A stretch of DNA of 64,000 bases from an uncultured Actinomycetota bacterium (GTDB taxonomy: Bacteria; Actinomycetota; Humimicrobiia; Humimicrobiales; Humimicrobiaceae): contig CAYZUS010000002.1 of NCBI GenBank assembly GCA_964481885.1, positions 40,837 to 104,836 on the forward strand, in the 5' to 3' direction. Shown piece by piece: positions 3,704 through 51,523 of the stretch; the stretch's first letter is position 1, and every line of letters begins with the position of its first letter. The translations under genes and the position numbers were made by a program. Under the pieces are notes generated by a model, which was not told the origin of the DNA, ran no database searches, and saw only the letters and a list, made by a program, of their open reading frames with translations.

Positions 3704-5032
3704 TTATAAAACCAGCAATGGTTTTTTGGTTTTGTTTATGACATCCTTTTTAAGTTCGGTATCCCTTATTATTATCTGGCTTCTTTCAGGTCCGACACTG
3801 ATCATTGAAATAGGAACTTTCACAAGTTTTTCAATTTCAAGTACATAATTTTTTGTATTTTCAGGGAGCTCCTCAAAATTTTTAATCTTTGAAATATCCT
3901 GTTTCCAGCCCTTCATTATCTTGTATGCGGGTTGGCATTTATGCATTATCGTCTGATGCGGCGGAATATCTTCAAAAAGCTCTCCCTCATAAGTATAACC
4001 GGTACATACCTTTATTTCGTCAAGACCCGAGAGTACGTCTAGCTTGGTAAGGACTATTTTATCAATGGAATTTAACATTATGGAGTATTTTAATATCAGG
4101 ATATCGAGCCAGCCGCATCTTCTCGCCCTGCCGGTGGTGGTTCCATATTCATGGCCCTTTTCTCTTAAGTATTCTCCTGTAGAGTCCTCTATTTCTGTCG
4201 GTAATGGTCCTGATCCTACACGAGTCGTGTATGCTTTTGCGACCCCGATTATTTCAGATATTTTTTTTGGCCCAACCCCTGAACCGACACACGCTCCCCC
4301 GGCAATAGTTGAAGATGATGTTACGAAAGGATAGGTGCCATGATCGATATCCAGCAGTGTTCCCTGTGCACCTTCAAACAAAACACGTTTACTATCATCA
4401 AGATATTTATTTATTAAAAATGACGTATCAACAATATATTTGCCAATAATACCCACAAAACCCTTGTATTTGCTGAATATTTCTTCAAGATTTAAAGGTT
4501 CAAGCCCGTAAACTTTCTCTATTATTGCATTCTTCAGTTTCAGTGCTTCTTCAAGTTTTGTCCTGAATATTTTCAGGTCCAGAAGATCCTGTACCCTTAT
4601 TCCGGATCTGTATGCTTTGTCTGCATATACAGGGCCAATACCTTTGTGTGTTGTGCCGATTTTTGATTTGCCAAGATTTTGTTCCCCTGCTTTGTCAAGA
4701 ACTATATGGTAAGGCATCACAAGATGTGCATTGCCGCTAATTCGCAGGTTTTTGGTATTTATTCCTTTTCCGGCAAGCATTTCAAGTTCTTCAATTAAAG
4801 TCTCAGGATTTACGACCACACCATTTGCTATCACGCATAATGTTTCCGGATACATTATACCTGAAGGGATATGGTGCAATTTAAGCTCCTCGGTACCAAT
4901 AACAACTGTGTGGCCCGCATTATTTCCACCCTGAAAACGAACAACCATATCCATGTCGCTGGCCAGAAGGTCAGTTACTCTGCCTTTCCCTTCGTCTCCC
5001 CACTGCGTTCCCAATAATATTATCCCTGGCAT
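3704..5032 (-). CDS. purA: adenylosuccinate synthetase
   Basis: Starts with GTQWGDEGKGRVTD and carries the GIGPVY and TTGRARRCGW motifs. 442 aa. Confidence 0.95.
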   Translation of the reverse strand: MPGIILLGTQWGDEGKGRVTDLLASDMDMVVRFQGGNNAGHTVVIGTEELKLHHIPSGIMYPETLCVIANGVVVNPETLIEELEMLAGKGINTKNLRISGNAHLVMPYHIVLDKAGEQNLGKSKIGTTHKGIGPVYADKAYRSGIRVQDLLDLKIFRTKLEEALKLKNAIIEKVYGLEPLNLEEIFSKYKGFVGIIGKYIVDTSFLINKYLDDSKRVLFEGAQGTLLDIDHGTYPFVTSSSTIAGGACVGSGVGPKKISEIIGVAKAYTTRVGSGPLPTEIEDSTGEYLREKGHEYGTTTGRARRCGWLDILILKYSIMLNSIDKIVLTKLDVLSGLDEIKVCTGYTYEGELFEDIPPHQTIMHKCQPAYKIMKGWKQDISKIKNFEELPENTKNYVLEIEKLVKVPISMISVGPERSQIIIRDTELKKDVINKTKKPLLVL

Positions 5033-10652: not shown

Positions 10653-11078
10653 GTTCCCCTGTTTTGGATAAATTTTTTATAATGATTCTTAATCAAATCC
10701 CGCGTAAGTTTAGCATTTACAGATACTATTTCAAGAGTGTCTTTTGAATTTAAAAGACTAATTGGTTTTAGCGCCATAAGAGGTATTAATATCTGAATTA
10801 TTTACATTTTTATTCAAAAATATAATCGATACATATATTTGATATTAAATTTTAAAGAGTATAATAACGAAATAATAGTTTAATATAATAAATTTATTGT
10901 CTTTTCGGCAGTAAATCACACCTTTTATATAGGGGTTACAAACATTGACTACAGAGCAAAAAGGGGCCCTGCTGTAAAAGAAATGAAATATTTAAAAATA
11001 TAAAAGATTTTTATTATTACAGCCTAAAAATGTAGTTTGATTATTGTACACGATATCTTTAGGGAGCAGTACCGCAAA

Positions 11079-14000
11079 ATGGTAATTCAAAATGAACTGG
11101 AAGAAAAGAAAATACTTCAACTGATTGTTTCTGCATCAGAAGAATTCCTGCAGTCTGCCGGTAATAAATTAAACTACCAGAAAATAACAGATAATATTTT
11201 AGATATCTCCGGCGCCAAGTATGCGGGCTTTAACTTGTATGATGAAGATGGCGACAAATTCAGAACAGTGGCTTTTTCTGCTCCGGACGGAATTGTAAAA
11301 AAAGCATCGTCTTTGGTGGGTTTCAAATTCCTTGACAAATCCTGGGAACATGACCCTGCCCGCGCCGAGAAAATAAAGTCAAAAATAATTACTCGTTTTT
11401 CTTCTTTAAGCGAACTTGAAGGAGGGTCCGTTTATAAACATATGTCTTCTCTTTTAGAGAAAACTTTCGATTTCGGTGAAGTGGTTATTGTAAAGATTTT
11501 AAAAGAAAATGTAATGCTTGGGGATTTTACTTTAATCATGCCCCGTGATGTCAATTTTAAAAATGACAGTTATGTTGAGATATATACCCGGCAGATAGGA
11601 CTGCTTATTGTCCGTAACAGAGGCGAAGCCAGAATGATTGAAAATGAAAGTCGCCTCAGAAGTGTTTTTGCTGCCGTAAGTGATCCGATTTTTCTGTTTG
11701 ACCAGAAAACAGGTGCTATTTTGGATGTAAATAACGCAGCATGCAGACTTTACGGCTATACGCGCGATGAAATGCTTAAGCTGAATGCCGGCAATATGTC
11801 CGCAGAGCCTAAAATTACAAAGGAATCAATGAATAATAGTTTTACTACTTTTGTACCAGTCAGGTACCATAAAAAGAAAGATGGAACTGTTTTTGTTGTA
11901 GAAATAACAGCCAGCCTGTTTGAACTAAATGGCCGCAATGCCATAACAGCCTCAATGCGGGATATTACCGAGCGAAAGGCTGCAGAAGATTTATTGCGGA
12001 ATGAACGGGAGAGACTTGCAAATATTATTGAAGGAACCAATGTGGGTACATGGGAGTGGAACGTCCAGACAGGAGAAACAATATATAATGAACGATGGGC
12101 CGAGATTGTCGGCCATACACTTGATGAAATACCGTCTGTTTGTCTGGAGATATGGAAAAATTTTGCACACCCCGAAGATCTTAAGAAATCAAACGAGCAG
12201 CTTAACAGAGTTTTTTCCAGGGAACTGGATTATTATGATATCGAAATGCGCATAAAACACAAAGATGGAAACTGGGTTTGGATACATGACAGGGGGAAAG
12301 TAATATCCTGGACCCCGGATGGCAAACCACTCTGGATGAGGGGTACTTATACTGAAATCACAGAGCGTAAAAAAACTGAGGAAGCGCTAAGGGAAAGTGA
12401 GTTAAAATATCGTTCTATTATCGAATCTTCAAGTGATGCAATTTTCTGCGTAGACGAAAAAGGGCAATATAAATTTACCAATCATCTGTTTTCATCAACC
12501 TTTGGAAAAACCCCGGATTATTTTATTGGAAAAACTTTTTGGGATATTTACCCCAAAGAGCACGCAGACTACCGTTATGATGCAACAAAAAAAGTGTTTC
12601 AGACCGGTGAAAGTGAGTCTTTGGAAGTCGAGGTTCCTCTGCCGGATAAAACTTTGCATTTCCTGGCTATAGCCAATCCTATAAAAGATGAAACAGGCAA
12701 AGTAATATTGGTTCTGACTCATGCAGTCGACATAACCGAACGTAAACGGACAGAGGAATTGGTGCAGAAAAGTGAGATCAAATACCGCCAGCTTTTTGAT
12801 AATATGACTACCGGTTTTGCGCTTCACGAAATGATCTATGACGAAGAAGGAAATCCTGTTAATTACCGCTTTCTTGAAGTAAATTCCGCTTTTGAAAAAC
12901 TGACAGGGCTTAAGGCTTCTGCCCTGATTGGTAAAACTGTCAAAGACGTAATTCCCAATACTGAGCAATATTGGATTGATGCTTACTCTACAGTTTCCAA
13001 AACCGGAGAATCAATTTCTTTTCAAAACTATTCAGAAGGCTTAAAAAAGTGGTATGAGTCATGGGTTTTCAGTCCAGCCAAAAATCAGTTTGCAACAATC
13101 TTTTCTGACATCACAGAGCGCAAAAAAACTGAAGAAGAAATTATCCACTTAAGCTTTCATGATCATTTAACCGGGCTTTATAACCGCAGATTTTTTGAGG
13201 AAGAATTAAAACGTCTTGATACCGAAAGACAGCTTCCCTTAAGCTTTATAATGGGAGATTTAAACGGCCTTAAGGTAATAAATGATGTTTTTGGACATGA
13301 TGAAGGCGACAGGTTGCTTAAAGAAACCGCAGAAATATTAAAAACAGTATGCCGCTCCGATGATATACTTGCGCGCTGGGGCGGAGATGAATTTGTCATT
13401 CTTCTTCCAAAAACTTCTATTTCCGAAGCAGATGAGATTACCGGCAGAATAAAAAAAGAATGCAAAAAAACAAACACTCAAAAGATAGAGCTGAGCCTTT
13501 CACTTGGATCTGCAACAAAAGAAATAGCGGGTCAGAACATACAGACAATTCTTATAGACGCTGAAAGCAACATGTACAGAAACAAACTTGGTGAAAAACA
13601 AAGCCTGGCAAGTTCTGTTATTTTTGCCCTGGATCAGGCTCTCTATGAAAAAAGCAATGAAACCAAAGAGCATACAGACAGGATACATGAGCTTGCCCTA
13701 AAACTCGGCAGGTCCATCAAACTTCCCTCCCACCAGTTAGACGAGCTTTCCCTCCTTGCATCACTCCATGATATAGGCAAGGTTGCAATACCTGAGAAAA
13801 TACTTCTTAAAAAAGGAAAGTTAACAGAAAAAGAGTGGGATATTATAAAAAGACATCCCGAAATAGGTTTTAACATTGCCCAGTCATCCCCGCAGATTGC
13901 GCATATTGCCAAAAGTATTCTCTCCTGCCATGAAAACTTCGATGGCAGCGGCTATCCGATGGGGCTGAAAGGTCAGGCAATTCCCATTATATCAAGAATA

Positions 14001-14168
14001 ATTTTTATCATTGATTCTTATGATGTCATGATAAGCGGGAGGGTATATAAACCGGCAATGAGCAAAGAAGATGCAATTAAAGAGCTTAAAAGATGCGCCG
14101 GCTCCCAGTTTGATCCTGAACTGGTAAATAATTGTTATAATGATTCTGAAAGACTGACTTTTGGTTAA
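11079..14168 (+). CDS. multidomain c-di-GMP turnover protein: GAF-like N-terminus, four PAS domains, GGDEF and HD-GYP
   Basis: The tracked ORF starts at 11037. The likelier start is the ATG at 11079, with an AGGGAG RBS 12 nt upstream; it matches the paralog's start. Four PAS-like repeats each end in ...ITERK(K/R)(A/T)EE. The GGDEF domain is intact (RWGGDEFVILLP). The HD-GYP domain shows HDIGKVAIPE...HENFDGSGYP. Confidence 0.85.
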   Translation: MVIQNELEEKKILQLIVSASEEFLQSAGNKLNYQKITDNILDISGAKYAGFNLYDEDGDKFRTVAFSAPDGIVKKASSLVGFKFLDKSWEHDPARAEKIKSKIITRFSSLSELEGGSVYKHMSSLLEKTFDFGEVVIVKILKENVMLGDFTLIMPRDVNFKNDSYVEIYTRQIGLLIVRNRGEARMIENESRLRSVFAAVSDPIFLFDQKTGAILDVNNAACRLYGYTRDEMLKLNAGNMSAEPKITKESMNNSFTTFVPVRYHKKKDGTVFVVEITASLFELNGRNAITASMRDITERKAAEDLLRNERERLANIIEGTNVGTWEWNVQTGETIYNERWAEIVGHTLDEIPSVCLEIWKNFAHPEDLKKSNEQLNRVFSRELDYYDIEMRIKHKDGNWVWIHDRGKVISWTPDGKPLWMRGTYTEITERKKTEEALRESELKYRSIIESSSDAIFCVDEKGQYKFTNHLFSSTFGKTPDYFIGKTFWDIYPKEHADYRYDATKKVFQTGESESLEVEVPLPDKTLHFLAIANPIKDETGKVILVLTHAVDITERKRTEELVQKSEIKYRQLFDNMTTGFALHEMIYDEEGNPVNYRFLEVNSAFEKLTGLKASALIGKTVKDVIPNTEQYWIDAYSTVSKTGESISFQNYSEGLKKWYESWVFSPAKNQFATIFSDITERKKTEEEIIHLSFHDHLTGLYNRRFFEEELKRLDTERQLPLSFIMGDLNGLKVINDVFGHDEGDRLLKETAEILKTVCRSDDILARWGGDEFVILLPKTSISEADEITGRIKKECKKTNTQKIELSLSLGSATKEIAGQNIQTILIDAESNMYRNKLGEKQSLASSVIFALDQALYEKSNETKEHTDRIHELALKLGRSIKLPSHQLDELSLLASLHDIGKVAIPEKILLKKGKLTEKEWDIIKRHPEIGFNIAQSSPQIAHIAKSILSCHENFDGSGYPMGLKGQAIPIISRIIFIIDSYDVMISGRVYKPAMSKEDAIKELKRCAGSQFDPELVNNCYNDSERLTFG

Positions 14169-14452
14169 ATTTAATTTCCACCTCCGGCACTAAATTTAAG
14201 CCAGATGACAGTACCGCTTCCACTATCTTTTCAGCAGAAATTAATTATTTTCAGGTTCACAATTAGTCAAATATAACTGACAGGGAAAATTTAAACCCTA
14301 ATAAATAATTTCAAGAAATTCAAGTCATTCACTGAAATTAATAAACCCTGCCTGTATTTAAAAAAAACCCAATATGAGTGATAATACGCATAAGGAAAAC
14401 CAGAGTAATGATTTTAGAAATAATTTTAAAAAGTTTAAAAGGGGATAAAATT

Positions 14453-15016
14453 ATGAGTCAGACTAAAAAAAATTCATTAATATTTTTTATGGGACCAATC
14501 ATTATACTGCTGTCATTTATTTTACTTGTTTTTAACACAGCGGGCTGTACTCCCAAGACAAATGTCAGGCTTTACTTTTCCCAATATGAAGATAACCTTG
14601 CTTATCTTGTTCCGGAAATGAGGCCGGTCGTAAATGATGGTGATTTTTATAAAAATATTGTGCAGGAAATTATCAAGGGGCCGGCAGACAAACAGACATA
14701 CCAGACAATTCCATCAACAGTAAAGGTAAATTCAGTTACTGTTTCAAGCGGGCTTGCAATTGTTGATTTTTCAAAGGAAATAATCACTAATGAGACAGAA
14801 ATACCGCATAGTTCAACAACCGAAATGCTTGCTATTTATTCAATAGTAGATACACTAACAGAGTTTAAAGAAATCCAAAAAGTCAGGATAACAGTCGAAG
14901 GTAAACAAAAAGGTTTAATCGAAGGTCTAAACATTGAAGATTTCTGGGGACAGGTTGGCATTTATGATGACTTTTCACGAAACGAACAGGTCCTGACAAA
15001 GGATACAATAGAATAA
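14453..15016 (+). CDS. GerMN-domain lipoprotein
   Basis: The tracked ORF starts at 14378. The ATG at 14453, with a GGGGATAAAATT RBS, gives a signal peptide plus lipobox (...LVFNTAGC). The GerMN-like region is NVRLYF...AYLVPE....LAIVDFSKE....ITVEGK. Confidence 0.65.
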   Translation: MSQTKKNSLIFFMGPIIILLSFILLVFNTAGCTPKTNVRLYFSQYEDNLAYLVPEMRPVVNDGDFYKNIVQEIIKGPADKQTYQTIPSTVKVNSVTVSSGLAIVDFSKEIITNETEIPHSSTTEMLAIYSIVDTLTEFKEIQKVRITVEGKQKGLIEGLNIEDFWGQVGIYDDFSRNEQVLTKDTIE

Positions 15017-15019
15017 AAA

Positions 15020-16204
15020 ATGGTTATAGAAAATAATTCTCTCCCATTTTCTCAATTTATAAAAAACGACAGTAAGAGCACTTTGCCCAAAGTGGGCTGG
15101 CTTTGTACTTATACCCCTGAAGAAATAATTATCGCAAATGGTTTCTGGCCCGTAAGGATAACCGGAAGTCAAAAAGCAAAAAAAGCTGAAGGGTATTTCC
15201 CCATAAACTTTTGCCCTTTTATAAAATCCTCGATGGAGGATCTTATGGATTTGAAGCATGAGCTGAGTGCAGTCATAGTTACAAACTCCTGTGACGGTAT
15301 GCGGCGTTTTTACGATATTGCTTCAAAATATATTCCGGAGCTTCCTTTTTTTATGCTGGATGTCCCAAGAAATCAAAACGAGCTGGCAGTTGAGTATTTT
15401 GCAAACAATATTTCAAAAATGTCTGATTTCCTTGAAGAAATAAGCGGCAGGAAAATGCTTCTGGCTGACCTGATCTCTGCACAGGAGACATGCAGTGAAA
15501 AAAGAATGCTTTTAATAAAACTCAGCAATTTTTTTAGAAATGACCAAAAAGTAATTGGGGTTAAAAATTACTTTAATATACTCATCAGCTCAATGACAGA
15601 AGAGCCGGGATATTTTAATAATGACCTTAGGTCATATTTTGAGTACGCTGAAATCCAGATCGAGCACAATAAATTAAAAACCGAGGCCGAATTAGAAGAT
15701 GCCGGCACCGAACAAACTCCTGAAGTAATGATTGTCGGAAACTTTATTGATGAAGACAGGTTATGGGAAATATTTGATGAGCTTGATTGTAAGATTTCTG
15801 CTGATGATCTTTGCAGCTCAAGCCGGTATTTCGAAAATATTATTCAGTCTGATAATTTTTCCGATATTTTTGGCAGAAAACGTGAACAACCGGATAAAGA
15901 TATATCGACCGGAATACTTGTTCGAGATATTGCTGTCAGGCAGCTTTTCAAACCACAGTGCATGAGAATGGCAAATCTTAATGATAAACTTGAAGAAATA
16001 AATAAAAATATCATAAAGAATAAGGTTAAGGGGATTATCTATATCAGTCAGAAATTTTGTGACAACACTCTCCTTTTCTATCCGCTTCTGAGGGAAAAAT
16101 TAAATATTATTAATATCCCCAGCCTTTTTATAGAAGTTGAACATAATAATTTATCGGTCGGGCAGATTAAAACCAGGATACAGGCTTTTTTGGAGATAAT
16201 TTAA
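15020..16204 (+). CDS. 2-hydroxyacyl-CoA dehydratase family subunit (HgdB/HadC-like)
   Basis: GWLCTYTPEEII...PVRI...TNSCDGMRR...LDVPR is the characteristic Cys-containing HgdB/BcrCB-family pattern. 394 aa. Confidence 0.7.
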   Translation: MVIENNSLPFSQFIKNDSKSTLPKVGWLCTYTPEEIIIANGFWPVRITGSQKAKKAEGYFPINFCPFIKSSMEDLMDLKHELSAVIVTNSCDGMRRFYDIASKYIPELPFFMLDVPRNQNELAVEYFANNISKMSDFLEEISGRKMLLADLISAQETCSEKRMLLIKLSNFFRNDQKVIGVKNYFNILISSMTEEPGYFNNDLRSYFEYAEIQIEHNKLKTEAELEDAGTEQTPEVMIVGNFIDEDRLWEIFDELDCKISADDLCSSSRYFENIIQSDNFSDIFGRKREQPDKDISTGILVRDIAVRQLFKPQCMRMANLNDKLEEINKNIIKNKVKGIIYISQKFCDNTLLFYPLLREKLNIINIPSLFIEVEHNNLSVGQIKTRIQAFLEII

Positions 16205-16227
16205 CTTTTGACACCGGAGAACTTTTT

Positions 16228-17727
16228 ATGGGCATAGCAGAGAATATAAAGCAAAATCTCAAAGTCAAGATTCAGAACAATCTTGACAGGAATTATATCA
16301 GGAAGATATTAAAAATAGTTGGCCGAAGGCCGGTGCTGGCTGCATATGGAGCAACAATATCCTCCAGATCTGATAAATATCTGAATATTGCAACCATAAA
16401 AAGTGTGAGCCACGCATACAATCCCAAAAATATTGTCGCTTATGGTTCACTTTTCCTGCCATATGAGATGTTTCACGCACTTGACCTTGTGCCCTTTTTA
16501 CCAGAGGTAATGGGAGGATTTACTGGCGGTCTGGGGATTGCAGACAGGACCTTAAAGGAAGCTTCTTCGAGATGGTACACGCCTGATCTGTGTACATTCC
16601 ACAGAAGCGCATCAGGCGCTGTAGAACTTGATATTTTTCCGGTCCCAAATTTTCTTTTATGTTCAAACCTGGCATGTGACGCGGCCCAAAAGACGTTCTA
16701 CATGGATGCCAAAAAATTTGGTCTGGGAGACAGGTACTACCTTATTGATACCCCTTACGACAAAGATGAATCATCGATAAAATATCTGGCTGCCCAACTC
16801 GAAGCAGTAAGTACCGATATTTGCAGAAAGTCAGGCAAAAAAATTGATATCGGGAAGTTTAAAAAATCAATAAATTTATCAAATGAATTCAGGCAATGGG
16901 CCATAAAAGCAAGCGACATCAGAAAAGAACTTTTAATTTATCCGAATAATTTTGATGGGCTTAGCTTTATCCTGCCTTTTCACGGTCTTGCAGGGACAAA
17001 AGATGCTGTTGAAGTCTATAAAAATATGTATTTTGAATTGAGTGAGTTTTTAAAGAAACAAAAAAGCGGCGGTTTTAAAGACACTCCCGGCAGATGGAGC
17101 GGCATACGAAGACGAATCAGCGGGAATAAGGGCATAGGCGGTACCAATAGTGACGGCGCGGGCGGCAGAGGAGTTGCTGATTTCGAAGGTGGCAGCGTGA
17201 GCGGCAGTTTCGACAGTATTGAAAGCAGCAATAACATTGATGGAGGAAATATAAGCATCGGTGGAACTGGCATTTCCGGCAGTGCCAGAATTAAAAAAAT
17301 CCTCTGGCTGCACCTGAAACCATACTATAACAATAATCTTTTCAGCCTGCTTGAGAGTAATAATTATAAGGTAGTTTTTGAAGAGATAAGCCAGGTGTAC
17401 TGGCCGGAGCTTGACCCTGAAAAACCTTTTGAGAGCCTTGCGATAAAAATGCTGTCTCATCCATTAAATGGTAGCGTGCAAAACAGGGTTAATGCAATAT
17501 TGAAAATGGTAAAGGACTTTAATGTGGACGGAGTCATCATGTTTGCCCATTGGGGATGCAGGCACAGCAACGGAGGCGCAAGGATAATAAAAGACAGCTT
17601 AAAAGAGGTCGATGTGCCGATGCTCCTGCTTGATGGTGACTGTCTCAATAAAAACAATTCGTCAGAAGGACAGATGCTGACAAGGCTGCAGGGTTTTATG
17701 GAAATTGTAGATGCAAAATTTCAATAA
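16228..17727 (+). CDS. 2-hydroxyacyl-CoA dehydratase family subunit (HgdA/HadB-like) with an ~75-aa Gly/Ser-rich insertion
   Basis: YGSLFLPYEMFHALDLVPF...DLCTFHRSASG...CSNLACD...LIDTPYD, as in the HgdA/HgdB family. A low-complexity insert spans nt ~17059-17293. The C-terminus reads ...HWGCRHSNGG. Confidence 0.7.
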   Translation: MGIAENIKQNLKVKIQNNLDRNYIRKILKIVGRRPVLAAYGATISSRSDKYLNIATIKSVSHAYNPKNIVAYGSLFLPYEMFHALDLVPFLPEVMGGFTGGLGIADRTLKEASSRWYTPDLCTFHRSASGAVELDIFPVPNFLLCSNLACDAAQKTFYMDAKKFGLGDRYYLIDTPYDKDESSIKYLAAQLEAVSTDICRKSGKKIDIGKFKKSINLSNEFRQWAIKASDIRKELLIYPNNFDGLSFILPFHGLAGTKDAVEVYKNMYFELSEFLKKQKSGGFKDTPGRWSGIRRRISGNKGIGGTNSDGAGGRGVADFEGGSVSGSFDSIESSNNIDGGNISIGGTGISGSARIKKILWLHLKPYYNNNLFSLLESNNYKVVFEEISQVYWPELDPEKPFESLAIKMLSHPLNGSVQNRVNAILKMVKDFNVDGVIMFAHWGCRHSNGGARIIKDSLKEVDVPMLLLDGDCLNKNNSSEGQMLTRLQGFMEIVDAKFQ

Positions 17728-18018
17728 TTTTTCAAAGCAGCGGCCAGCATTGCAACAGAAGCTGTTTTATGTAAATTGCAGACACAGGGTTTCAGTAATT
17801 TCTCAAAGCATCTGACAGCATCGTGACACCAGCCCTTTTATGGAAATTGCAAACGCAGGGTTTCAATAATTTCTCAAAGCATCTGACAGCATCGTGACAC
17901 CAGCCCTTTTATGGAAATTGCAAACGCAGGGTTTTGATAATATCTTAAAGAAGCGAACAGATTTGCAGTAGCATCTCTTTTATGGAAATTGCAAACGCAG
18001 GGTTTTAATGGTTTTAAG
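17692..18018. repeat. 71-bp tandem direct repeat array (~4.5 copies) seeded by the last 36 nt of the upstream CDS
   Basis: The units lie at 17765-17835, 17836-17906 and 17907-17977, with a partial unit at 17978-18018. Each begins ttttatggaaattgcaaacgcagggtttcaataatttctcaaagca. Copy 0 (17692-17764) is the 3' end of the gene at 16228-17727. Confidence 0.9.
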
Positions 18019-18067
18019 TATAAATATTTTTAAAATTATCTCCAAATAAACATCGGAAAGGATTTTT

Positions 18068-18838
18068 ATGTACACATGTGGAATAGATGTAGGCTCAGTA
18101 TCGGCAGAAGCAGTAATAATTAACAGGCAAGACGGAAAGACTGATATAGTCGCATACATAATAACGCCTACAGGCGGAGACAGCAAGGGAGCCGCTACAA
18201 ATGTTTTTAACCAGGCTCTGGAAAAAGCAGGGCTTGCAGCGGGCGATATTTCAGCTGTTGTGGCGACAGGTTATGGCAGAATAAATATCCCTTTTGCCAC
18301 AAAAAACATAACTGAGATAAGCTGCCATGCAAGAGGAGTGGCCCATTATTTCCCCGACATCAGGACCGTAATAGACATTGGCGGCCAGGACAGCAAGGTT
18401 ATTAAACTTGACAGTAAGGGTAACCCGATTGATTTTTTGATGAACGACAAGTGTGCTGCCGGAACCGGGAGATTTCTTGAAGTAATGGCAAAGGCGCTGG
18501 ACATAGATATACGGAATTTTGCTGAAATCTTTGCCACAACAAGCCAGAAAGTAGATATTTCCTCCACATGCACAGTTTTTGCCGAGTCTGAGATTGTTTC
18601 ACTTATCGGGCATGGAGTTGCCAAAAACAGCATCGTCAAAGGTCTTGTTTATTCCATTACAGGCAGGATAATATCAATGGTTGAAAGAATAGGGCTTGAA
18701 GAGCCGGTTTGTATGACAGGCGGAGTTGCAAAAAACCTTGCCGTGGTTAGCGCCCTTGAAGAAAGACTGGACTTAAAGATAAAGGTTCCGGAAGAACCCC
18801 AGATAACCGGCGCACTCGGTGCCGCACTTTTAGGTTAA
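18068..18838 (+). CDS. CoA-substrate-specific enzyme activase (BadF/BadG/BcrA/BcrD ATPase family; HgdC/HadI-like)
   Basis: MYTCGIDVGS...DIGGQDSKVI...CAAGTGRFLE. 256 aa, the typical activator length. Confidence 0.85.
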   Translation: MYTCGIDVGSVSAEAVIINRQDGKTDIVAYIITPTGGDSKGAATNVFNQALEKAGLAAGDISAVVATGYGRINIPFATKNITEISCHARGVAHYFPDIRTVIDIGGQDSKVIKLDSKGNPIDFLMNDKCAAGTGRFLEVMAKALDIDIRNFAEIFATTSQKVDISSTCTVFAESEIVSLIGHGVAKNSIVKGLVYSITGRIISMVERIGLEEPVCMTGGVAKNLAVVSALEERLDLKIKVPEEPQITGALGAALLG

Positions 18839-18909
18839 AAACAATAAGTGTTCCTTGAGCTTTCCAGCCATTCCTGCAAAGTGCAATTAATGCTTCTTGG
18901 AATGAAGTG

Positions 18910-20154
18910 CTACTGTTGCTTTTTATAAAAAGCATTCAGCTTGATATATTCATAAGTAATATCATTAGTCAGGATACGTGCAGACTGCTGGCCGCAATTA
19001 AGATTTACATTAAAACTAATATATCTTTCCTTCAGCAGATTGTTTGCATGCCCCTCATCAAAATCAACAGACATTCCCGCCTTCATGACAAAGATGTCAC
19101 CGCATGAAATATCAATTTTTGAATTATCGATATTATTATCAATTGACCCAATGGCTGCCGCAATTCTTCCCCAGTTGATGTCTTCCCCGTACATTGCAGA
19201 TTTAAAAAGTATGGAATTTGCAATTTTTTTACCTATTGCCCTGGCTTCATTTTTATCTGCGGTACCTGTAACATTTATCTCAATTACTTTGGTTGCGCCC
19301 TCCCCGTCTTCGACTACTTTCATTGAGAGATTTTCAAGGAGCATAAGCAAAGCTTTTTTGAAGACTTTATAAAGCTCCTGATTATCTTTTGTAATTTCCA
19401 GTGTGCTTGCACCATTTGCTATTATAAGTGCCATGTCATTTGTGCTCTGGCACCCGTCAGTTGAAATGCAGTTAAATGTTGAGTCCACGCACTCAAACAA
19501 CAGCTCATCCAGAAGTTCAGGCTTTATTTTTGCGCTTGTCGCCATAAACGAAAGTGTTGTGGCCATATTGGGCTCAACCATCACAGAACCTTTGGCAATG
19601 CCGCCCAGGAATACTCCCCTGCCATCAAATTCAAACAGCAGCGCGTATTCTTTGGGATGTTTGTCAATAGTCAGGATTGCTTTTGCAGTATTATGGCCGC
19701 CTTCCTGATTTAAGTGCCTGCTGCAAAAGTCCAGCCCTTTCTCAATCTTGTCAAGCGGAAGCTGCCTTCCAATCCTTCCTGTGGATGAGACCAGTATATT
19801 TTCTTCAGGGATATTTAAGTATTGCGCCGCAAGCTTTACTGTCTGTTTGGCGTTAGCTATACCGAGTTCGCCTGTACAGGCGTTAGCTATACCGCTGTTT
19901 ACGATTATTGCATTTATGTTCCTGTTTTTACTTAACTGCTGCTTGGAAACTACTACGGGAGCGGCTGCAAATTTATTTGTTGTAAAGACTCCGCTGCATG
20001 CGGTATCACCGGGTAGAAAAATTATACTGAAATCATCTTTTGATTTTCTTATTCCACAATGATGCGAAGCCGTGAGAACTCCCGGAACAGATGTTATTGT
20101 TCCATTTTCAATTATTTTGATTTCATTTCTTTTGTTGCCTGTATTATCGCTCAT
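18910..20154 (-). CDS. argJ: bifunctional glutamate N-acetyltransferase/amino-acid acetyltransferase ArgJ
   Basis: ArgJ-family architecture, 414 aa. The self-cleavage region reads PNMATTLSFMAT and there is a KGSVMVEPNMAT motif. Confidence 0.85.
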   Translation of the reverse strand: MSDNTGNKRNEIKIIENGTITSVPGVLTASHHCGIRKSKDDFSIIFLPGDTACSGVFTTNKFAAAPVVVSKQQLSKNRNINAIIVNSGIANACTGELGIANAKQTVKLAAQYLNIPEENILVSSTGRIGRQLPLDKIEKGLDFCSRHLNQEGGHNTAKAILTIDKHPKEYALLFEFDGRGVFLGGIAKGSVMVEPNMATTLSFMATSAKIKPELLDELLFECVDSTFNCISTDGCQSTNDMALIIANGASTLEITKDNQELYKVFKKALLMLLENLSMKVVEDGEGATKVIEINVTGTADKNEARAIGKKIANSILFKSAMYGEDINWGRIAAAIGSIDNNIDNSKIDISCGDIFVMKAGMSVDFDEGHANNLLKERYISFNVNLNCGQQSARILTNDITYEYIKLNAFYKKQQ

Positions 20155-20240
20155 TTTTTAGTGTTTTTCCTCTTAAAAAATTTTTTAAATAATATTTAAA
20201 ACTCAACCATGGCAAGTTTTAAAGAAGATCTGCCTATATA

Positions 20241-20302
20241 TAATTATTGCATATTATACATAATTATTAAATATTATGCAATAATTATTAAATATTATGC
20301 AA
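20241..20302. promoter_or_regulatory. three tandem ~21-bp AT-rich repeats (two perfect copies of taattattaaatattatgcaa) upstream of argJ; candidate ARG-box-like operator
   Basis: Perfect 21-bp copies lie at 20261-20281 and 20282-20302, with a degenerate copy at 20241-20260. The 21-bp spacing equals two helical turns. The region sits 90-150 bp upstream of the argJ start codon. There is an internal TGCA/TGCA dyad. Confidence 0.4.
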
Positions 20303-20306
20303 TAAT

Positions 20307-21449
20307 TTATTTTAGAAATTCCTGGTAATTGTTTCTGTCAACTATTTCAAAACTCGAATATTTATAATTATCAGAAAATCCTTTGGGAATTTTAGAGGAT
20401 TTGAATCCACGGTTTTTCCACTTGAATTCATAAGCACTTATTTCCCCTGCTGCTTCTTCGATATAATCAATTTCTCCTTCCTGGTGGGCTCTCCAGAAAT
20501 AGGAATTTACATCTGACAAATTATTTGAATTATTCTTTAGCCTCTCTGAAGTCATAAAATTTTCCCACAAAAAACCCATATCATTCCTTAAAAAAGCAGG
20601 GTTAAAATTATTAATAATTGCATTTCTTATTCCGGTGTCGTAGAAATAAATTTTCCTTAAGCTTTTTAGTTCATTTCTCAAATTACTGCTGTAAGGGTTA
20701 AGCCTGAAAATAATATAAGCCTTCTCCAGAATTGAAATATAATTTTGAACAGTTTTTTTATCTATTCCGACGATATTTGACAATTCGTTGTAGGAAACTT
20801 CGTTTCCTATCTGCAGAGCCAGTGCCTGTAAAAGCTTTTCAAGGATTTCAGGATTTCTTATACGCTGATATTGCAGAATATCTTTATAAAGGTAACTTTT
20901 TGCAATCTCCTTTAAATTTCTTTGAGCATCCGGTTCGTTTAAGACAATTTCAGGATATGACCCAAAGATTATCCTGTTCTCCAGAAGCCTGTCGATTTCC
21001 AGGGGTGAATAAATATTTTGCACCTCAGATATTGAAAAAGGGTAAAGATGATATTCATACTTTCGGCCCGTCAGGGGCTCAACTATTTCATTTGACAATT
21101 CAAAAGATGAAGAACCGGTTGCTATGACCTGGATTTCCTTATAATTATCCGCAATCAACTTTAAAGTCAAACCTATATTTTTTACTCTTTGAGCTTCATC
21201 TATCAGCACAAGCTTTTTATTACCTATCAGGCTTTTTAATTCTGTTGAAGTTTTTTCAGAAAGTGACTGCCTGATATCGGGTTCGTCGCAGTTAAGATAT
21301 ACAGATATGTCATTGAATTTATTTTGGATTTCTTTTACAACTGTGGTCTTGCCTGTTCTGCGCGCACCATAAATGATTATTACCTTATTCTTGAACAAGC
21401 TGTTTTCGATGCTCTGCTGGATATGCCTTATAACTGTCATTTTTTCCAC
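20307..21449 (-). CDS. AAA+ ATPase with a C-terminal DUF4143 (COG1373-type)
   Basis: Walker A GARRTGKT and Walker B LVLIDEAQ. 380 aa. Confidence 0.75.
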   Translation of the reverse strand: MEKMTVIRHIQQSIENSLFKNKVIIIYGARRTGKTTVVKEIQNKFNDISVYLNCDEPDIRQSLSEKTSTELKSLIGNKKLVLIDEAQRVKNIGLTLKLIADNYKEIQVIATGSSSFELSNEIVEPLTGRKYEYHLYPFSISEVQNIYSPLEIDRLLENRIIFGSYPEIVLNEPDAQRNLKEIAKSYLYKDILQYQRIRNPEILEKLLQALALQIGNEVSYNELSNIVGIDKKTVQNYISILEKAYIIFRLNPYSSNLRNELKSLRKIYFYDTGIRNAIINNFNPAFLRNDMGFLWENFMTSERLKNNSNNLSDVNSYFWRAHQEGEIDYIEEAAGEISAYEFKWKNRGFKSSKIPKGFSDNYKYSSFEIVDRNNYQEFLK

Positions 21450-46704: not shown

Positions 46705-47904
46705 TTATATTTCAGGTTTTACCTCAAGCTTTACTCCGCTTTCTGAAGACTCCCTGATTTTATCCATAATCAGCTGGATAACATAACCGTCATAAAAAGT
46801 GGCGCCATAAGGCTCTACACTTTTATTATTTACTATACAATCCAATAAATGCGCGATCTCATTTACATGAGCATTCTCCCACCCTATATTGTGTCCCGGC
46901 GGCCACAGCAGGGACGCAAACGGATCTTTGGGGTCCGTAACGGAAACTTTTGTAAATCCTGAAATATCGGCTGAGGGAGAGTCTTTTAACCAGACATAAA
47001 GATGATTTAAGTCCTCCAGGTCCCAATATATGCTGCCCTTGGAGCCATTTATTTCCCAGGTGTGCTGATTTAATCTTCCTGCTGAAATCCCTGATGATTC
47101 GATTGAACCTACTGCTCCATTTTCAAATTCCACAAGACTGAAATTGGTTTCATCGGCGCTTATGATTTCGGTACTGTTATTTCTGTTTAATCTCGTAGTA
47201 TTAAAGGTTTTTTGAATTCCTGATACGGTCTTTATTTCTGAAACAAGAAATCTTGCAAGATCGATTATGTGGCATCCGATTCCCAGATTGACTCCTGATT
47301 TTGTTCCTGATGCATACCAGACATCTTCAATTGGATTTCCGGGATTGGCTCCTACAGACTGCAGGTATCTTCCCCTGAACTCATATATTTCCCCCAAAAC
47401 ACCATTTTTAATCATTTCTTTTGCCCGCCTTACTGCAGGGATAAATCTGTAGTTGTGCCCGAGCATATGTTTGACCTTTGCTTTTTTTGCGGCCGTATAC
47501 ATCCTTTTAGCGTCATCAACAGTCATTGCAAGAGGTTTTTCACACAATACATTTTTGCCTGCTTCGACAGCCGCAATGCAAGGCTCACAGTGCATGTCAT
47601 CAGGAGTGCAATTATCTATCAGCAGAATCCTTGGATCCTTAACCAGAAGATTCCAATCGTTGTAATAGCCCTGATAACCGTACCTGTACGCCGCCTCCTG
47701 CGTCTGGGACTCATTTTCCAAAAGCCCACAGACGGCCACAAGCTCCGGTATTGCAACAGGGGGCCAGGAAAAGTAGCTTAGTTTTTTATAGGCATTGGTA
47801 TGCGCCTTTCCCATAAATCCATACCCTATCAGTCCTATTCCGATTTTGGGAAAATTATATTTTTCTGTGTCTGTTTCTTTAAAACCCTGCATATTTATAG
47901 CCAT
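46705..47904 (-). CDS. Gfo/Idh/MocA family oxidoreductase
   Basis: IGIGLIGYGFMGKAH and CEKPLA. 399 aa. Confidence 0.8.
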   Translation of the reverse strand: MAINMQGFKETDTEKYNFPKIGIGLIGYGFMGKAHTNAYKKLSYFSWPPVAIPELVAVCGLLENESQTQEAAYRYGYQGYYNDWNLLVKDPRILLIDNCTPDDMHCEPCIAAVEAGKNVLCEKPLAMTVDDAKRMYTAAKKAKVKHMLGHNYRFIPAVRRAKEMIKNGVLGEIYEFRGRYLQSVGANPGNPIEDVWYASGTKSGVNLGIGCHIIDLARFLVSEIKTVSGIQKTFNTTRLNRNNSTEIISADETNFSLVEFENGAVGSIESSGISAGRLNQHTWEINGSKGSIYWDLEDLNHLYVWLKDSPSADISGFTKVSVTDPKDPFASLLWPPGHNIGWENAHVNEIAHLLDCIVNNKSVEPYGATFYDGYVIQLIMDKIRESSESGVKLEVKPEI

Positions 47905-48064
47905 TCCTTTCGAGGCACGAAATAATAATGAAAAGAGTTTCTTTTTAAGACCTGTGCCTCTTCAAAAAAGAATGAAAAGACAGCCCCGCAAAAGAATAAA
48001 AAGAGTTGCTTTTTCAAACTTCTTCCTCTCCACAAAAAAGCTAAAAGGCATCCTCACAAAAGAT

Positions 48065-48916
48065 TTATTTTCTTAAAAGATTAAGAAAATCTATACTTTC
48101 AGCCACTGCCTTATCTACTTCTCCTTTATATTTCGGGTGAAGATTATCAATTTCAACAGCCAGAAATCCATTATATCCTGCTATTTCAAGTTCTGCAGTA
48201 ATGGCTTCAATATTAATTATCCCCTGCCCTACCGGGGTGCAGGAGAAAAACATCCAGTCCTTGGGATCCCATCCATAAATTGCCTCTACATCTTTAAGAT
48301 GAGTAGCAAATATATGTTTGGAAAGCAGCTTTGCAGATTTTACCGGATCATCTCCATTTCTCAGGCAATTTCCTGTGTCAAAAGTAAGCCCAAAATACGG
48401 AGAGTCGACATTTGTAATTATTGTCAATATCTCATCAGTCGTAAAATCAAAATGGTTTTCTATTGCAATTCTTATTCCGCTGTCCTGGGCAATACTGACT
48501 GCTTCTTTCATCATTTTTGTAATTCGATTAATTTGTGGAAGGTGAGGCTCATTTCTAAATGAAAGGCTGGAACCAACCATTCTCAGAAGATCAGTTCCCA
48601 GTAATTTGCATGTTTTAAACTGCTCGTACATTTCTTTCAGCGCCGCTACATTATTTCCGCCTTCAAGCCCGTTAGGATGGCCCCATGCAACAACTACTTT
48701 AAAGTTGTTTTTATCTATTATCTCCCTTATTTTCTTTAAATAGCTCTCGTCAAAGGAGGGGATAAAACATGTTTCAAGGGACACACCGTCGACTTTCAGT
48801 TCAGCGGCACGGCTTAAAAAATCCTCAAGGCTCATTTTTACTTTTGGTGCCTCTTCTGTCGGATATACTTCCCCGAAATATTTATGGTAGCAATAACTGT
48901 CAATGCCAATTTTCAT
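48065..48916 (-). CDS. sugar phosphate isomerase/epimerase (xylose-isomerase-like TIM barrel)
   Basis: VDGVSLE...AIENHFDF...FDTGN...HLKD. 283 aa. Confidence 0.75.
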   Translation of the reverse strand: MKIGIDSYCYHKYFGEVYPTEEAPKVKMSLEDFLSRAAELKVDGVSLETCFIPSFDESYLKKIREIIDKNNFKVVVAWGHPNGLEGGNNVAALKEMYEQFKTCKLLGTDLLRMVGSSLSFRNEPHLPQINRITKMMKEAVSIAQDSGIRIAIENHFDFTTDEILTIITNVDSPYFGLTFDTGNCLRNGDDPVKSAKLLSKHIFATHLKDVEAIYGWDPKDWMFFSCTPVGQGIINIEAITAELEIAGYNGFLAVEIDNLHPKYKGEVDKAVAESIDFLNLLRK

Positions 48917-50335: not shown

Positions 50336-51523
50336 TTATTTTGCCAGATAAGCAGTTAGTTTCTCATCAAATGATTTGAAGAGATCAGCATTTTCTGTGT
50401 AGCTTGTTTCGTAGAATGCAAGATCCCACTGGAATTTATTTTCAGCTCGTGCCTTCAAATAATCCTCGATTACCCAAGGAATAGCCTGATCCAAATTTTC
50501 TTTGGTCATTGCTGCCCAAGGTTTGATCTGCAGATAAGTGAGAGCTTCTTCGCCTCTAAGATAACGGGAGATCTGCTGAATACAAAGATCAGCATTTAAT
50601 GATGGAGGATTTGGAGATGTAGCTGACATCTTGCCATCTTTAATTAACTGCCAACCTTCTTCTTTACCATTGCAGGAAACCATTATCTTGCCTGTTACGT
50701 TTTGTTCTTCAAATACCTGCTGAACACCGAAAGCTGTTTCTTCATTGCAAGCAAAAATTACATCAAATTCCCTGCCTGATGAAATAAGATCCTGTGTTAT
50801 AGGTATTGCAAGAGTTCTCTGCCATTCTGAGCTTTTGGTTAAAAATGCTGGTTCCAGGCCTGCTTCTTCAAGAGCCATATCAAAACCAACGATTTCGCCT
50901 TCAGCTGGGCCCTGTCCAAGAAATCCGGGGATATTTACACTCTTGGCATTAGGAACATTTTCTGCAACCCATTTGCCAACCTGATAACCCATGATTACAA
51001 AGTTATCAGTTACGTGTCCCTGAAGTTCAGTTCCTGCTGTAAGCTCAGGTTTTCCAGCGATAAAGAATATTGGCACCTTTGCATCGTTAGCAGCCTTGAT
51101 TGTAGTAGCGCTTCCTGCTGCACCTGCAGTTATAACTGCAATTGCGTCTACGCCCTTAGCGATAAGATCCTGAACGTTTGCAAGTTCTTTTTCAGGTTTG
51201 TAGTCAGAGTTAAGCTCTGTAACTATCATACCCTGTGATTCTGCCAAAGCCTTAAATGCTTTTCCAAATGCTGCATAATAATCATCAGGACCTGCATTTA
51301 CAAAGCCAAGTTGTTTTCCTGTAAGATCCATCTGAGCGGCTTCTGTTTCAACAGCAGCAGCAGTAGTTTCAGCAGCAGCAGCTGTGGTTTCAGCAGCAGC
51401 AGTTGTAGCAGCAGCTGTAGTAGCAGCAGCTGTAGTTTCAGCAACAGTTGCAGTTTTACAACCAATGCCTATTGATCCTAAAATAGCTATACAGATTACG
51501 ACTATAAGTAGCTTTTTTAACAT
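50336..51523 (-). CDS. sugar ABC transporter substrate-binding lipoprotein (periplasmic-binding-protein type I fold)
   Basis: Signal peptide plus Cys, then a Thr/Ala-rich linker (TAAETTAAATTAAA...), then a ribose/xylose-type PBP domain. Confidence 0.75.
   Translation of the reverse strand: MLKKLLIVVICIAILGSIGIGCKTATVAETTAAATTAAATTAAAETTAAAAETTAAAVETEAAQMDLTGKQLGFVNAGPDDYYAAFGKAFKALAESQGMIVTELNSDYKPEKELANVQDLIAKGVDAIAVITAGAAGSATTIKAANDAKVPIFFIAGKPELTAGTELQGHVTDNFVIMGYQVGKWVAENVPNAKSVNIPGFLGQGPAEGEIVGFDMALEEAGLEPAFLTKSSEWQRTLAIPITQDLISSGREFDVIFACNEETAFGVQQVFEEQNVTGKIMVSCNGKEEGWQLIKDGKMSATSPNPPSLNADLCIQQISRYLRGEEALTYLQIKPWAAMTKENLDQAIPWVIEDYLKARAENKFQWDLAFYETSYTENADLFKSFDEKLTAYLAK

Follow-up and report, generated by a model that had tools for sequence, protein, structure and literature searches.

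A 71-bp tandem repeat copied from the 3' end of a dehydratase gene, most likely a tolerated lineage-specific minisatellite, in an uncultured actinobacterium

Introduction

How does the end of a protein-coding gene come to be repeated, unit after unit, in the spacer that separates it from the next gene of its operon, and does such a repeat affect the genes on either side? This question is raised by a locus of an uncultured actinobacterium in which head-to-tail copies of a 71-bp unit start inside a dehydratase gene and run toward the gene for the corresponding activase. An original prediction, made from the letters of the DNA, held that the array might alter coupling or expression between the dehydratase subunits and the activase or be a slippage-prone variable locus. 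We followed it up by computational analysis of the window (the whole stretch of 64,000 nucleotides that contains the locus) and of orthologous loci in related genomes. The array is a real repeat that we found in this lineage alone, and it is most likely a local minisatellite, a by-product of duplication that has been tolerated, rather than a new type of element.

Results

The gene complement around the array is that of a 2-hydroxyacyl-CoA dehydratase/benzoyl-CoA reductase-type set, with PF06050 found twice and PF01869 once (Table 1), and the genes flanking the array encode dehydratase, activase, and ArgJ. The gene whose 3' end is copied had been called HgdA-like, a name that stands at the level of the PF06050 family but not of the subunit: its best NCBIfam match, the alpha subunit HadB, scores 75 bits where the cutoff is 750, and the subunit equivalogs (HadB/HadC, double-cubane) all score far under their cutoffs, making the assignment a family-level one.

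TABLE 1 Coordinates of the operon genes, the repeat units, and the activase leader in the window
Feature	Position	Strand	Characteristics
First HGD-D gene of operon	15020..16204	+	PF06050 3.5e-63; beta-like/double-cubane-like
HGD-D gene whose end is copied	16228..17727	+	499 aa; PF06050 3e-56; alpha-subunit-like, 2-hydroxyacyl-CoA dehydratase/benzoyl-CoA reductase family
U0	17694-17764	+	True gene end TTTTATGGAAATTGTAGATGCAAAATTTCAATAA, stop 17725-17727, then 37 nt of spacer (X0); 70-76% identical to U1-U3
U1	17765-17835	+	Mini-frame lost (ATG TAA); 94% identical to U2
U2	17836-17906	+	Sole copy reading MEIANAGFQ, then stop (TAA)
U3	17907-17977	+	Reads MEIANAGF, then stop (TGA); second half 44% diverged from that of U1/U2
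U4, partial	17978 to ~18009	+	Core only; MEIANAGF, then stop (TAA 18006-18008); ancestral position relative to downstream leader
Exact 68-nt pair	17796-17863 = 17867-17934	+	Identity checked; offset 71 nt; register shifted ~31 nt
Unique AT-rich leader R	18009..18067	+	59 nt, 20% GC; activase Shine-Dalgarno (SD) site GGAAAGGA at 18055-18062
Acyl-CoA dehydratase activase (BcrAD_BadFG ATPase)	18068..18838	+	PF01869 1.9e-59; TIGR00241 258 bits, cutoff 125

TRF places a tandem repeat at 17694-18009 with a period of 71, 4.5 copies, 82% matches, 0% indels, and a score of 352, by far the strongest tandem repeat of the window, and a repeat search gave start-to-start spacings of 71, 71, and 71. Each unit consists of a gene-derived half (E), which begins with a 28-nt core, and an adjoining half (X). 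The core has 4 matches at ≤3 mismatches compared to 0.00 expected from 100 shuffles; within the 64-kb window the core and X motifs are confined to the array, and the unit occurs nowhere else there. The predicted array of about 4.5 head-to-tail 71-bp copies is thereby borne out, as is its starting point in the gene end plus spacer: copy 0 comprises the last nine codons, the stop, and 37 nt of spacer, and the last 34 nt of the gene form the first half of U0. Pairwise identity among full units ranges from 69 to 94%, so that the expectation of units at least 70% identical agrees with the TRF matches but is borderline for the most distant pairs (69%). Two other details had to be corrected. The mini-frame MEIANAGFQ-stop, said to be kept in every downstream copy, is intact only in U2 and thus wrongly assigned to three of four, and part of the spacer is left free, contrary to what had been claimed, because the unique 59-nt leader separates the array from the activase ATG. 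The protein itself ends in GFMEIVDAKFQ before its stop, and relatives keep MEIVDAR[YFH]Q at this place.

The X halves are mutually homologous, with 20 to 25 of 36 positions identical compared to about 9 expected (p<=5e-5), and copies X1 and X2 are identical. They are diverged copies of one sequence, not unrelated spacers, and the 3' end of the gene has indeed been duplicated head to tail together with the proximal spacer. Within the array, the exact 68-nt pair marks the footprint of the latest one-unit duplication, a very recent event in a shifted register.

These features bear on membership in a repeat class already known (CRISPR, REP/BIME, MIRU-type mobile units, or a diversity-generating retroelement [DGR] whose TR/VR pair acts on the C terminus of the gene), which we consider extremely unlikely. 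A conserved core of ~30 nt alternating with ~40 variable nt gives a superficial likeness to CRISPR, but the variable halves share homology, two of them are identical, and no Rfam CRISPR-DR match was found at E<=5. REP/BIME elements are rejected as well: the units hold no inverted repeat or palindrome and no stable fold or hairpin, folds being mostly less stable than those of shuffles. On both points the original prediction, which had set CRISPR and REP aside, was right. A copied gene 3' end followed by further copies downstream does resemble VR and TR; the differences between E0, the E copy of U0, and the downstream core are T/C, G/A, T/C, and AAA/GGG, not adenine-specific, and none of the seven ORFs with an annotation from 11037 to 21449 encodes a reverse transcriptase. 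The MIRU comparison is taken up in the Discussion.

The search for a transcribed structure was likewise negative. Stable RNA structure in each unit, a matter raised by the original prediction, was not found: unit folds on both strands gave z of -0.4 to +1.6, none significantly stable, and the fold of the whole spacer (z = +1.26) is no more stable than that of shuffles. Rfam returned no real match, only a single chance match of 15.8 bits, and no terminator was found within the array. Rho loading (C>G) was considered and rejected: the array contains 56 C and 57 G, and only X1 and X2 look C-rich by eye, too short a stretch.

At 12 orthologous loci the DNA could be read (L001, L002, L012-L016, L137-L140), and the array is missing from every one. 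These come from assemblies of Actinomycetota/Humimicrobiales, all of them MAGs, at ~80% amino acid and 88% nucleotide identity. The corresponding spacers in orthologous loci with readable DNA measure 23, 49, 57, 86, 143, and 153 nt, and those of three further relatives, for which gene coordinates were available, measure 56, 150, and 152 nt; overall, spacer length varies 15-fold among relatives. The 59-nt leader is collinear with the entire stop-to-ATG spacer of L140 (46/57 matches), the alignment of U4 plus leader extends this to the whole L140 spacer, and blastn against L012 gave 89% from 18022 onward. Judged from these alignments, the leader is orthologous to the spacers of the relatives, and its SD-to-ATG region is conserved in all relatives compared. 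Since the activase has its own conserved SD site and the spacers of relatives vary from 23 to 153 nt, tight translational coupling is no conserved feature here.

Within the protein collection, the genome that bears the array stands alone, the next relative being 81% identical, and exact-product look-ups of both flanking proteins and of P0001 yielded no contig on record. A metagenome scan with the core as a degenerate pattern gave 0 matches. The gapped pattern TTTATGGAAAT-N45-75-TTTATGGAAAT gave at least 120 unspecific metagenome matches, and none of the fetched loci was homologous to the operon by blastn or tblastn. A viral scan and blastn against plasmids and phages found nothing like the array.

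A single, environmentally assembled source raises the suspicion of an assembly artifact, with a repeat mis-threaded or strain variants placed in tandem on a metagenome-assembled contig, and the fact that all relatives are MAGs and that the protein, encoded on a 145-kb NCBI contig, is a singleton adds to it. The copies, however, are diverged (69 to 94% identity), whereas graph loops yield exact copies; the longest exact repeat of 68 nt is under usual read and maximum k-mer lengths; and the X-to-E junctions require at least one real tandem duplication. As a rule, assemblers also shorten tandem repeats and do not lengthen them, an argument made for M. tuberculosis repeats as well (PMC12817950). 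An artifact is therefore highly improbable. The structure, with its exact 68-nt block and its absence from readable orthologous loci, fits the earlier suggestion of a slippage-prone locus.

Could the mini-frames be of use to the cell? The mini-ORFs (MEIANAGF/Q) would then be translated, to make a peptide or to help ribosomes cross the long spacer, in the latter case with protection from polarity and coupling to the activase as the result. U2 to U4 each keep an ATG, 8 to 9 sense codons, and a stop, and MIRUs offer an analogy, their ORFs being coupled to the genes on either side (PMC3184786; PMC12548453). Yet no SD site precedes any mini-ORF ATG, the gaps from a stop to the next ATG amount to ~40 to 66 nt, 59 nt separate the last stop from the activase ATG, no stop overlaps a start, and nothing but ATG TAA is left in U1. 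Because 71 = 3x23+2, the frame shifts by +2 per unit, so that no two successive mini-ORFs share one. Moreover, identity of the cores extends to every nucleotide, synonymous sites included, which argues for homogenization of DNA and not for selection on a peptide, and of the 6 differences that set E0 apart from the downstream core, at least 5 are nonsynonymous. A translated function of either kind thus seems very unlikely.

A more serious contender is a functional cis-regulatory module, in which the E core (28 to 31 nt) would be a weak promoter or a binding site, present several times over, that tunes transcription of the activase relative to the dehydratase. The core is identical in U2 to U4 and the period exactly kept, while X has diverged by 31 to 44%, and U0, U2, and U3 carry TGGAAA-N18-(A/G)ATAAT, which agrees with 9 of 12 sigma-70 consensus positions and is oriented toward the activase. 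There is also a precedent in M. tuberculosis, where 54-58-bp promoter tandem repeats just 5' of genes vary in copy number and a change of expression has been proposed (PMC12817950). However, promoter-like matches in this AT-rich region are not above chance (19, compared to 14.0 +/- 3.3 in shuffles) and are a trivial consequence of the coding sequence ATGGAAAT...CAATAAT. The part without changes would cover the putative -35 element and the spacer, whereas the -10 hexamer sits where copies differ and is destroyed in U4, the copy closest to the activase. No relative has or needs the array, and no regulator gene adjoining the operon is evident from domain annotation. On balance we find this explanation unlikely.

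What simple models do not capture is the contrast between the two halves of the unit. U2 and U3 show 0/28 differences in their first 28 nt and 18/43 in the rest (Fisher p=3.5e-5), and U1 and U3 show 3/28 and 19/43 (p=0.004). The X-X divergence (JC 0.39 to 0.67) is as large as the dS of 0.56 to 0.75 from the nearest relatives, so the array is old, and despite this divergence it has kept an exact 71-nt period, zero indels, and an invariant core, which is not what simple neutral decay would lead one to expect. The homogeneity of the core, unlike X, calls for either short-patch gene conversion or selection. Under selection, an old and maintained module would have its 28-nt core bound by a factor or serving as a weak promoter, with fixed 71-nt phasing and the number of units tuning activase against dehydratase; we think this quite unlikely.

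The X half is unusual in composition, with 39 to 53% GC compared to 17 to 36% in the other spacers of the genome, and searches for its source were not significant or gave only short words. The upstream coding sequence, compared in register and at +/-6 offsets, gave a joint p=0.47. The activase leader/RBS region, under a microhomology model with TTTTATG at both ends, gave p 0.06-0.95; the spacers of L001, L002, and L015 were not significant; and elsewhere in the window, searched on both strands, 12-nt words were the best match. The one marginal comparison was that of X3 with the proximal spacer of L012 (p about 0.05).

Discussion

The best reading, and a probable one, is that of a lineage-specific intercistronic minisatellite that arose by tandem duplication and persists in a length-tolerant spacer. 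A 71-bp segment, consisting of the last nine codons of the dehydratase gene and its stop (E, ~31 to 35 nt) and ~36 to 40 nt of adjoining sequence (X), would have been tandemly duplicated by replication slippage or unequal recombination, and later one-unit events would have expanded it to the structure E(XE)4. The protein would be unchanged because the first E is still joined to the coding sequence. The last E would likewise still be joined to the ancestral activase leader, and the downstream E copies may be regarded as noncoding relics, not translated as the C terminus of the gene. On this account the array persists because the spacer tolerates changes of length, and it tolerates them because the activase has its own conserved SD site, independent of coupling to the upstream stop. 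The untranslated gap would have grown from ~60 to 340 nt. Any effect of the array on coupling or expression is a matter of inference, and the net effect would be at most that expression of the activase is mildly uncoupled from that of the dehydratase subunits; a literature search on the stoichiometry of the activase yielded nothing of use. The uniformity of the 28-nt E core may come from recent duplication together with short-patch gene conversion among the most alike copies; conversion among the E cores is our proposal.

As a single-genome structural quirk in a length-variable spacer, the array is mostly without importance. It is nevertheless a clean natural case of a stop-codon-spanning tandem duplication that leaves the protein intact, with the first and last copies anchored in their ancestral upstream and downstream contexts. 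Its invariant 28-nt core next to 31 to 44% divergence in the rest of the unit makes it a small test case for conversion versus selection in bacterial minisatellites, and it is a potential strain marker, as well as an assembly trap, for the Humimicrobiales-like lineage. If the core were functional, the idea of promoter tandem repeats, described of late for mycobacteria, would extend to a distant actinobacterial class, and a module under selection would mean that, in this uncultured lineage of actinobacteria, the 3' end of a coding sequence has given rise to a promoter/operator tandem repeat.

How does the array compare with known systems? In 1997, Supply et al. reportedly described MIRU elements with translationally coupled ORFs. 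Like the array, MIRUs are intercistronic and oriented with the operon, have a short ORF per unit, and are of similar size, since MIRU units of 40 to 100 bp, with ORFs overlapping the flanking stop and start codons (PMC3184786; PMC12548453), include the 71 bp found here. The ORFs of the array differ in having no -4 overlap with the flanking stop or start and no SD site, in shifting frame by unit, and in including one ATG TAA. MIRUs are dispersed at tens of loci, whereas the array is a single locus in 64 kb without sign of mobility or dispersion in the window, and its unit stems from the local gene end; it is therefore no MIRU.

Bacterial VNTRs, such as the ETR/MIRU-VNTR loci and PTRs of M. tuberculosis, are closer. 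The array resembles a VNTR-type minisatellite in that its copies are homologous with a constant period, its unit comes from flanking single-copy sequence, and the orthologous sites with readable DNA are without it. Both have units of tens of base pairs in head-to-tail, imperfect copies, both lie between co-oriented operon genes or just 5' of a gene, and both grow by whole units, for which the 68-nt block stands here. The array differs by its single locus, by a unit taken from the stop-codon region of the adjacent gene and no dispersed family, and by its host, an uncultured deep-branching Actinomycetota (Humimicrobiales-like) and not Mycobacterium.

A further parallel lies within the same clade, where L002 has a 41-bp tandem repeat of 2.6 copies, taken from the first HGD-D gene at its 5' end. 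Like the array, it is local, spans a start or stop codon, leaves the frame of the functional copy intact, and sits in the same gene cluster; unlike the array, it lies at the other end of the operon, with a different unit, fewer copies, and an independent origin. Tandem duplication across gene boundaries thus recurs in this clade.

Structure of the array and its operon

The end of the second HGD-D gene and the spacer between it and the activase gene hold a tandem array (17694 to 18009; period 71, 4.5 copies, 82% matches, and 0 indels by TRF) with the top tandem-repeat score in the 64-kb window (352). An independent repeat search gave unit spacings of 71/71/71, and none of the four periods departs from 71 nt, bearing out the original prediction of about 4.5 head-to-tail copies of a 71-bp unit. 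Its account of the first copy as the 3' end of the gene plus adjoining spacer holds as well, U0 being the genuine ORF end (...GFMEIVDAKFQ*; stop at 17725 to 17727). Each unit comprises a gene-end half (E), containing a 28-nt core, and another half (X) of ~36 to 40 nt. The core, TTTTATGGAAATTGCAAACGCAGGGTTT, has four matches at ≤3 mismatches against 0.00 expected, with no copy in the rest of the 64-kb window.

Coordinates of the array units (U0 to U4) and of annotated genes in the window
Feature	Coordinates	Strand	Description
Germane-domain protein	14378-15016		Annotated gene of operon context
HGD-D subunit, first	15020-16204		PF06050
HGD-D subunit, second	16228-17727		PF06050; 499 aa
U0	17694-17764	+	End of ORF 16228-17727 plus 37 nt of spacer
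U1	17765-17835	+	Mini-frame ATG TAA
U2	17836-17906	+	Mini-frame MEIANAGFQ*
U3	17907-17977	+	Mini-frame MEIANAGF*
U4, partial	From 17978; array end ~18009	+	Mini-frame MEIANAGF*
BcrAD_BadFG activase	18068-18838		Passes TIGR00241 cutoff
ArgJ			Convergent to operon; gene annotation
AAA_14/DUF4143 ATPase	20307-21449	-

The peptide frame ending in GFQ*, claimed earlier for every downstream copy, occurs in U2 only. The mini-frames rotate through three frames, since 71 = 3×23+2; no SD precedes their ATGs (preceding sequences ...AGCTGTTTT, ...CAGCCCTTTT, and ...CATCTCTTTT), and translation of these mini-ORFs is considered very unlikely. Nor does the array fill the whole spacer, as had been stated: it is followed by 59 nt of unique sequence (18009 to 18067; 20% GC) containing the activase SD GGAAAGGA. 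The X halves have 39 to 53% GC versus 17 to 36% in other spacers of the genome.

The label "HgdA-like" is valid at the family level only, because the NCBIfam subunit-level models (HadB/HadC, double-cubane, and Bcr/Bzd) all score far under their cutoffs for the HGD-D subunits. A G/S/N-rich low-complexity insert (17080 to 17290; aa ~285 to 355 of the second subunit) splits the HGD-D domain, which Pfam matches in two stretches; the insert varies in both length and sequence among relatives (proteins of 453 to 499 aa), and more distant ~427-aa homologues mostly lack it.

Distribution and duplication history

A genome scan with the 499-aa HGD-D protein found 11 loci, all in Actinomycetota MAGs (Ca. 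Humimicrobiales and Ca. Hydromicrobium), the best match being 80% identical; in a 5.8-billion-protein collection this protein is a singleton, with next relatives 78 to 81% identical. The orthologous junction was read in 12 loci (L001, L002, L012 to L016, and L137 to L140), and three more were compared by called-gene spacer length only. Synteny is kept, the stop-to-ATG spacer measures 23, 49, 56, 57, 86, 143, 150, 152, or 153 nt, and neither the array nor any tandem repeat lies at the orthologous spacer in the 12 loci read. The activase SD-ATG region is conserved in all relatives' loci compared. The intercistronic gap between the two HGD-D genes is likewise variable in length across the clade: it measures 184 nt in L137 (1317 to 1500) and 23 nt in the window.

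Downstream of U4, the leader aligns collinearly with the whole L140 spacer (46/57 matches) and with the distal L012 spacer (89%). The array thus has the form E(XE)4: its first E keeps the upstream, coding context of the ancestral sequence, and its last E keeps the downstream one. An exact 68-nt block (17796 to 17863 = 17867 to 17934) indicates that the latest event was a one-unit duplication in a register shifted by ~31 nt. X0, X1, and X3 differ pairwise at 11 to 16 of 36 sites (JC 0.39 to 0.67), comparable to the dS of 0.56 to 0.75 that separates the window from its nearest relatives in conserved flanking coding parts; hence the first duplication is old, of roughly the same age as the divergence from the sequenced relatives. 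X has no detectable similarity to the upstream coding sequence, the activase leader, or anything else in the window; X3 alone among the X halves shows a weak likeness to the proximal L012 spacer (19/22 with 3 gaps, p ~0.05).

We regard the array as probably an intercistronic minisatellite specific to this lineage that arose and expanded through local tandem duplication; that it is an assembly artefact seems very improbable. It would be tolerated in a spacer whose length varies 15-fold among relatives because the activase would be translated from its own SD, and a longer untranslated gap is probably its sole consequence.

Homogeneity of the core

U2, U3, and U4 share one and the same core sequence, from which U1 departs at 3 of 28 positions. 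Outside the core, U2 and U3 differ at 18 of 43 positions (Fisher p = 3.5e-5 versus the core) and U1 and U3 at 19 of 43 (p = 0.004). The U2-U3 core identity is due to the recent 68-nt duplication, which leaves the U3-U4 identity and the U1-U3 contrast unaccounted for. Either gene conversion in short patches between the segments most alike or purifying selection acting on the core could explain this pattern. Such selection might act on the core as a peptide, but the identity extends to every nucleotide, and the U1 mini-ORF is knocked out. The core might also be a promoter, TGGAAA-N18-AATAAT being present in U0, U2, and U3; however, such matches are not enriched (19 versus 14.0 ± 3.3 expected), the invariant part is the -35 and spacer rather than the -10, and the -10 is lost in U4, the copy nearest the activase gene.

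Other repeats

In L002, a relative ~70% identical in aa, the dehydratase operon is repeat rich. A 41-bp × 2.6 repeat (2551 to 2658) places copies of the 5' end (ATGCTTT...ACAGAAAAT) of its first HGD-D gene, which starts at 2635, in the spacer upstream, a counterpart to the window array, which sits at the opposite end of this operon; a 14-bp × 4.8 repeat (TGGATATCATAATA; 3851 to 3917) lies between the two HGD-D genes, and a 21-bp × 4.1 repeat (4897 to 4983) lies in a low-complexity insert within the second.

In the window, a further minisatellite with a unit of comparable length (68 bp × 2.0, 75% matches; 47927 to 48063), which shows no obvious sequence resemblance to the 71-bp unit, occupies a 160-nt spacer between minus-strand genes (48065 to 48916 and 46705 to 47904) and abuts the stop of the upstream gene. 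The spacer that separates ArgJ from the ATPase gene has 17% GC and contains a 21-bp × 3.3 AT-rich repeat (ATAATTATTAAATATTATGCA; 20240 to 20307); the ATPase gene looks like an insertion in the window's lineage, being absent from the otherwise syntenic L001, L013, and L014. A CAG/CAGCAG-rich imperfect block (51345 to 51456; periods 3, 15, 18, and 21) is presumably coding low-complexity sequence. The G+C content of the window, ~38%, is unusually low for Actinomycetota and typical of the Humimicrobiales-like relatives found; positions 1 to 64000 contain no tRNA genes and no Rfam families at the gathering threshold.

Comparison with known repeats and regulatory elements

Metagenome and viral contig collections contain no match to the exact or degenerate core, blastn of the array spacer against plasmids and phages gave no match, and among the matches listed by a looser gapped-pattern scan all are chance hits unrelated to the dehydratase-activase operon. 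Folding of each unit, as the original prediction had proposed, gave no stable structure (z -0.4 to +1.6, both strands); in a comparison with 100 shuffles, 90 folded better than the 401-nt region (z = +1.26), and the array contains no Rfam match or intrinsic-terminator-like site. A regulatory role, for which the promoter tandem repeats of M. tuberculosis would offer a parallel (PMC12817950), is conceivable but unlikely.

The earlier view that the array is neither a CRISPR array nor a REP element agrees with our results: the "spacers" are homologous (20 to 25 of 36 identical, p ≤ 5e-5), with X1 = X2 exactly, and no palindrome was found. A DGR TR/VR pair was rejected, as mismatches are not adenine specific and no reverse transcriptase is among the genes annotated around the array. 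MIRUs are dispersed and their ORFs overlap flanking stop/start codons (PMC3184786, PMC12548453), whereas the array is not dispersed in the 64-kb window and its ORFs overlap neither. That it represents a known repeat class of this sort is exceedingly improbable. Most likely, the array belongs with the bacterial VNTRs/minisatellites, an already known kind.
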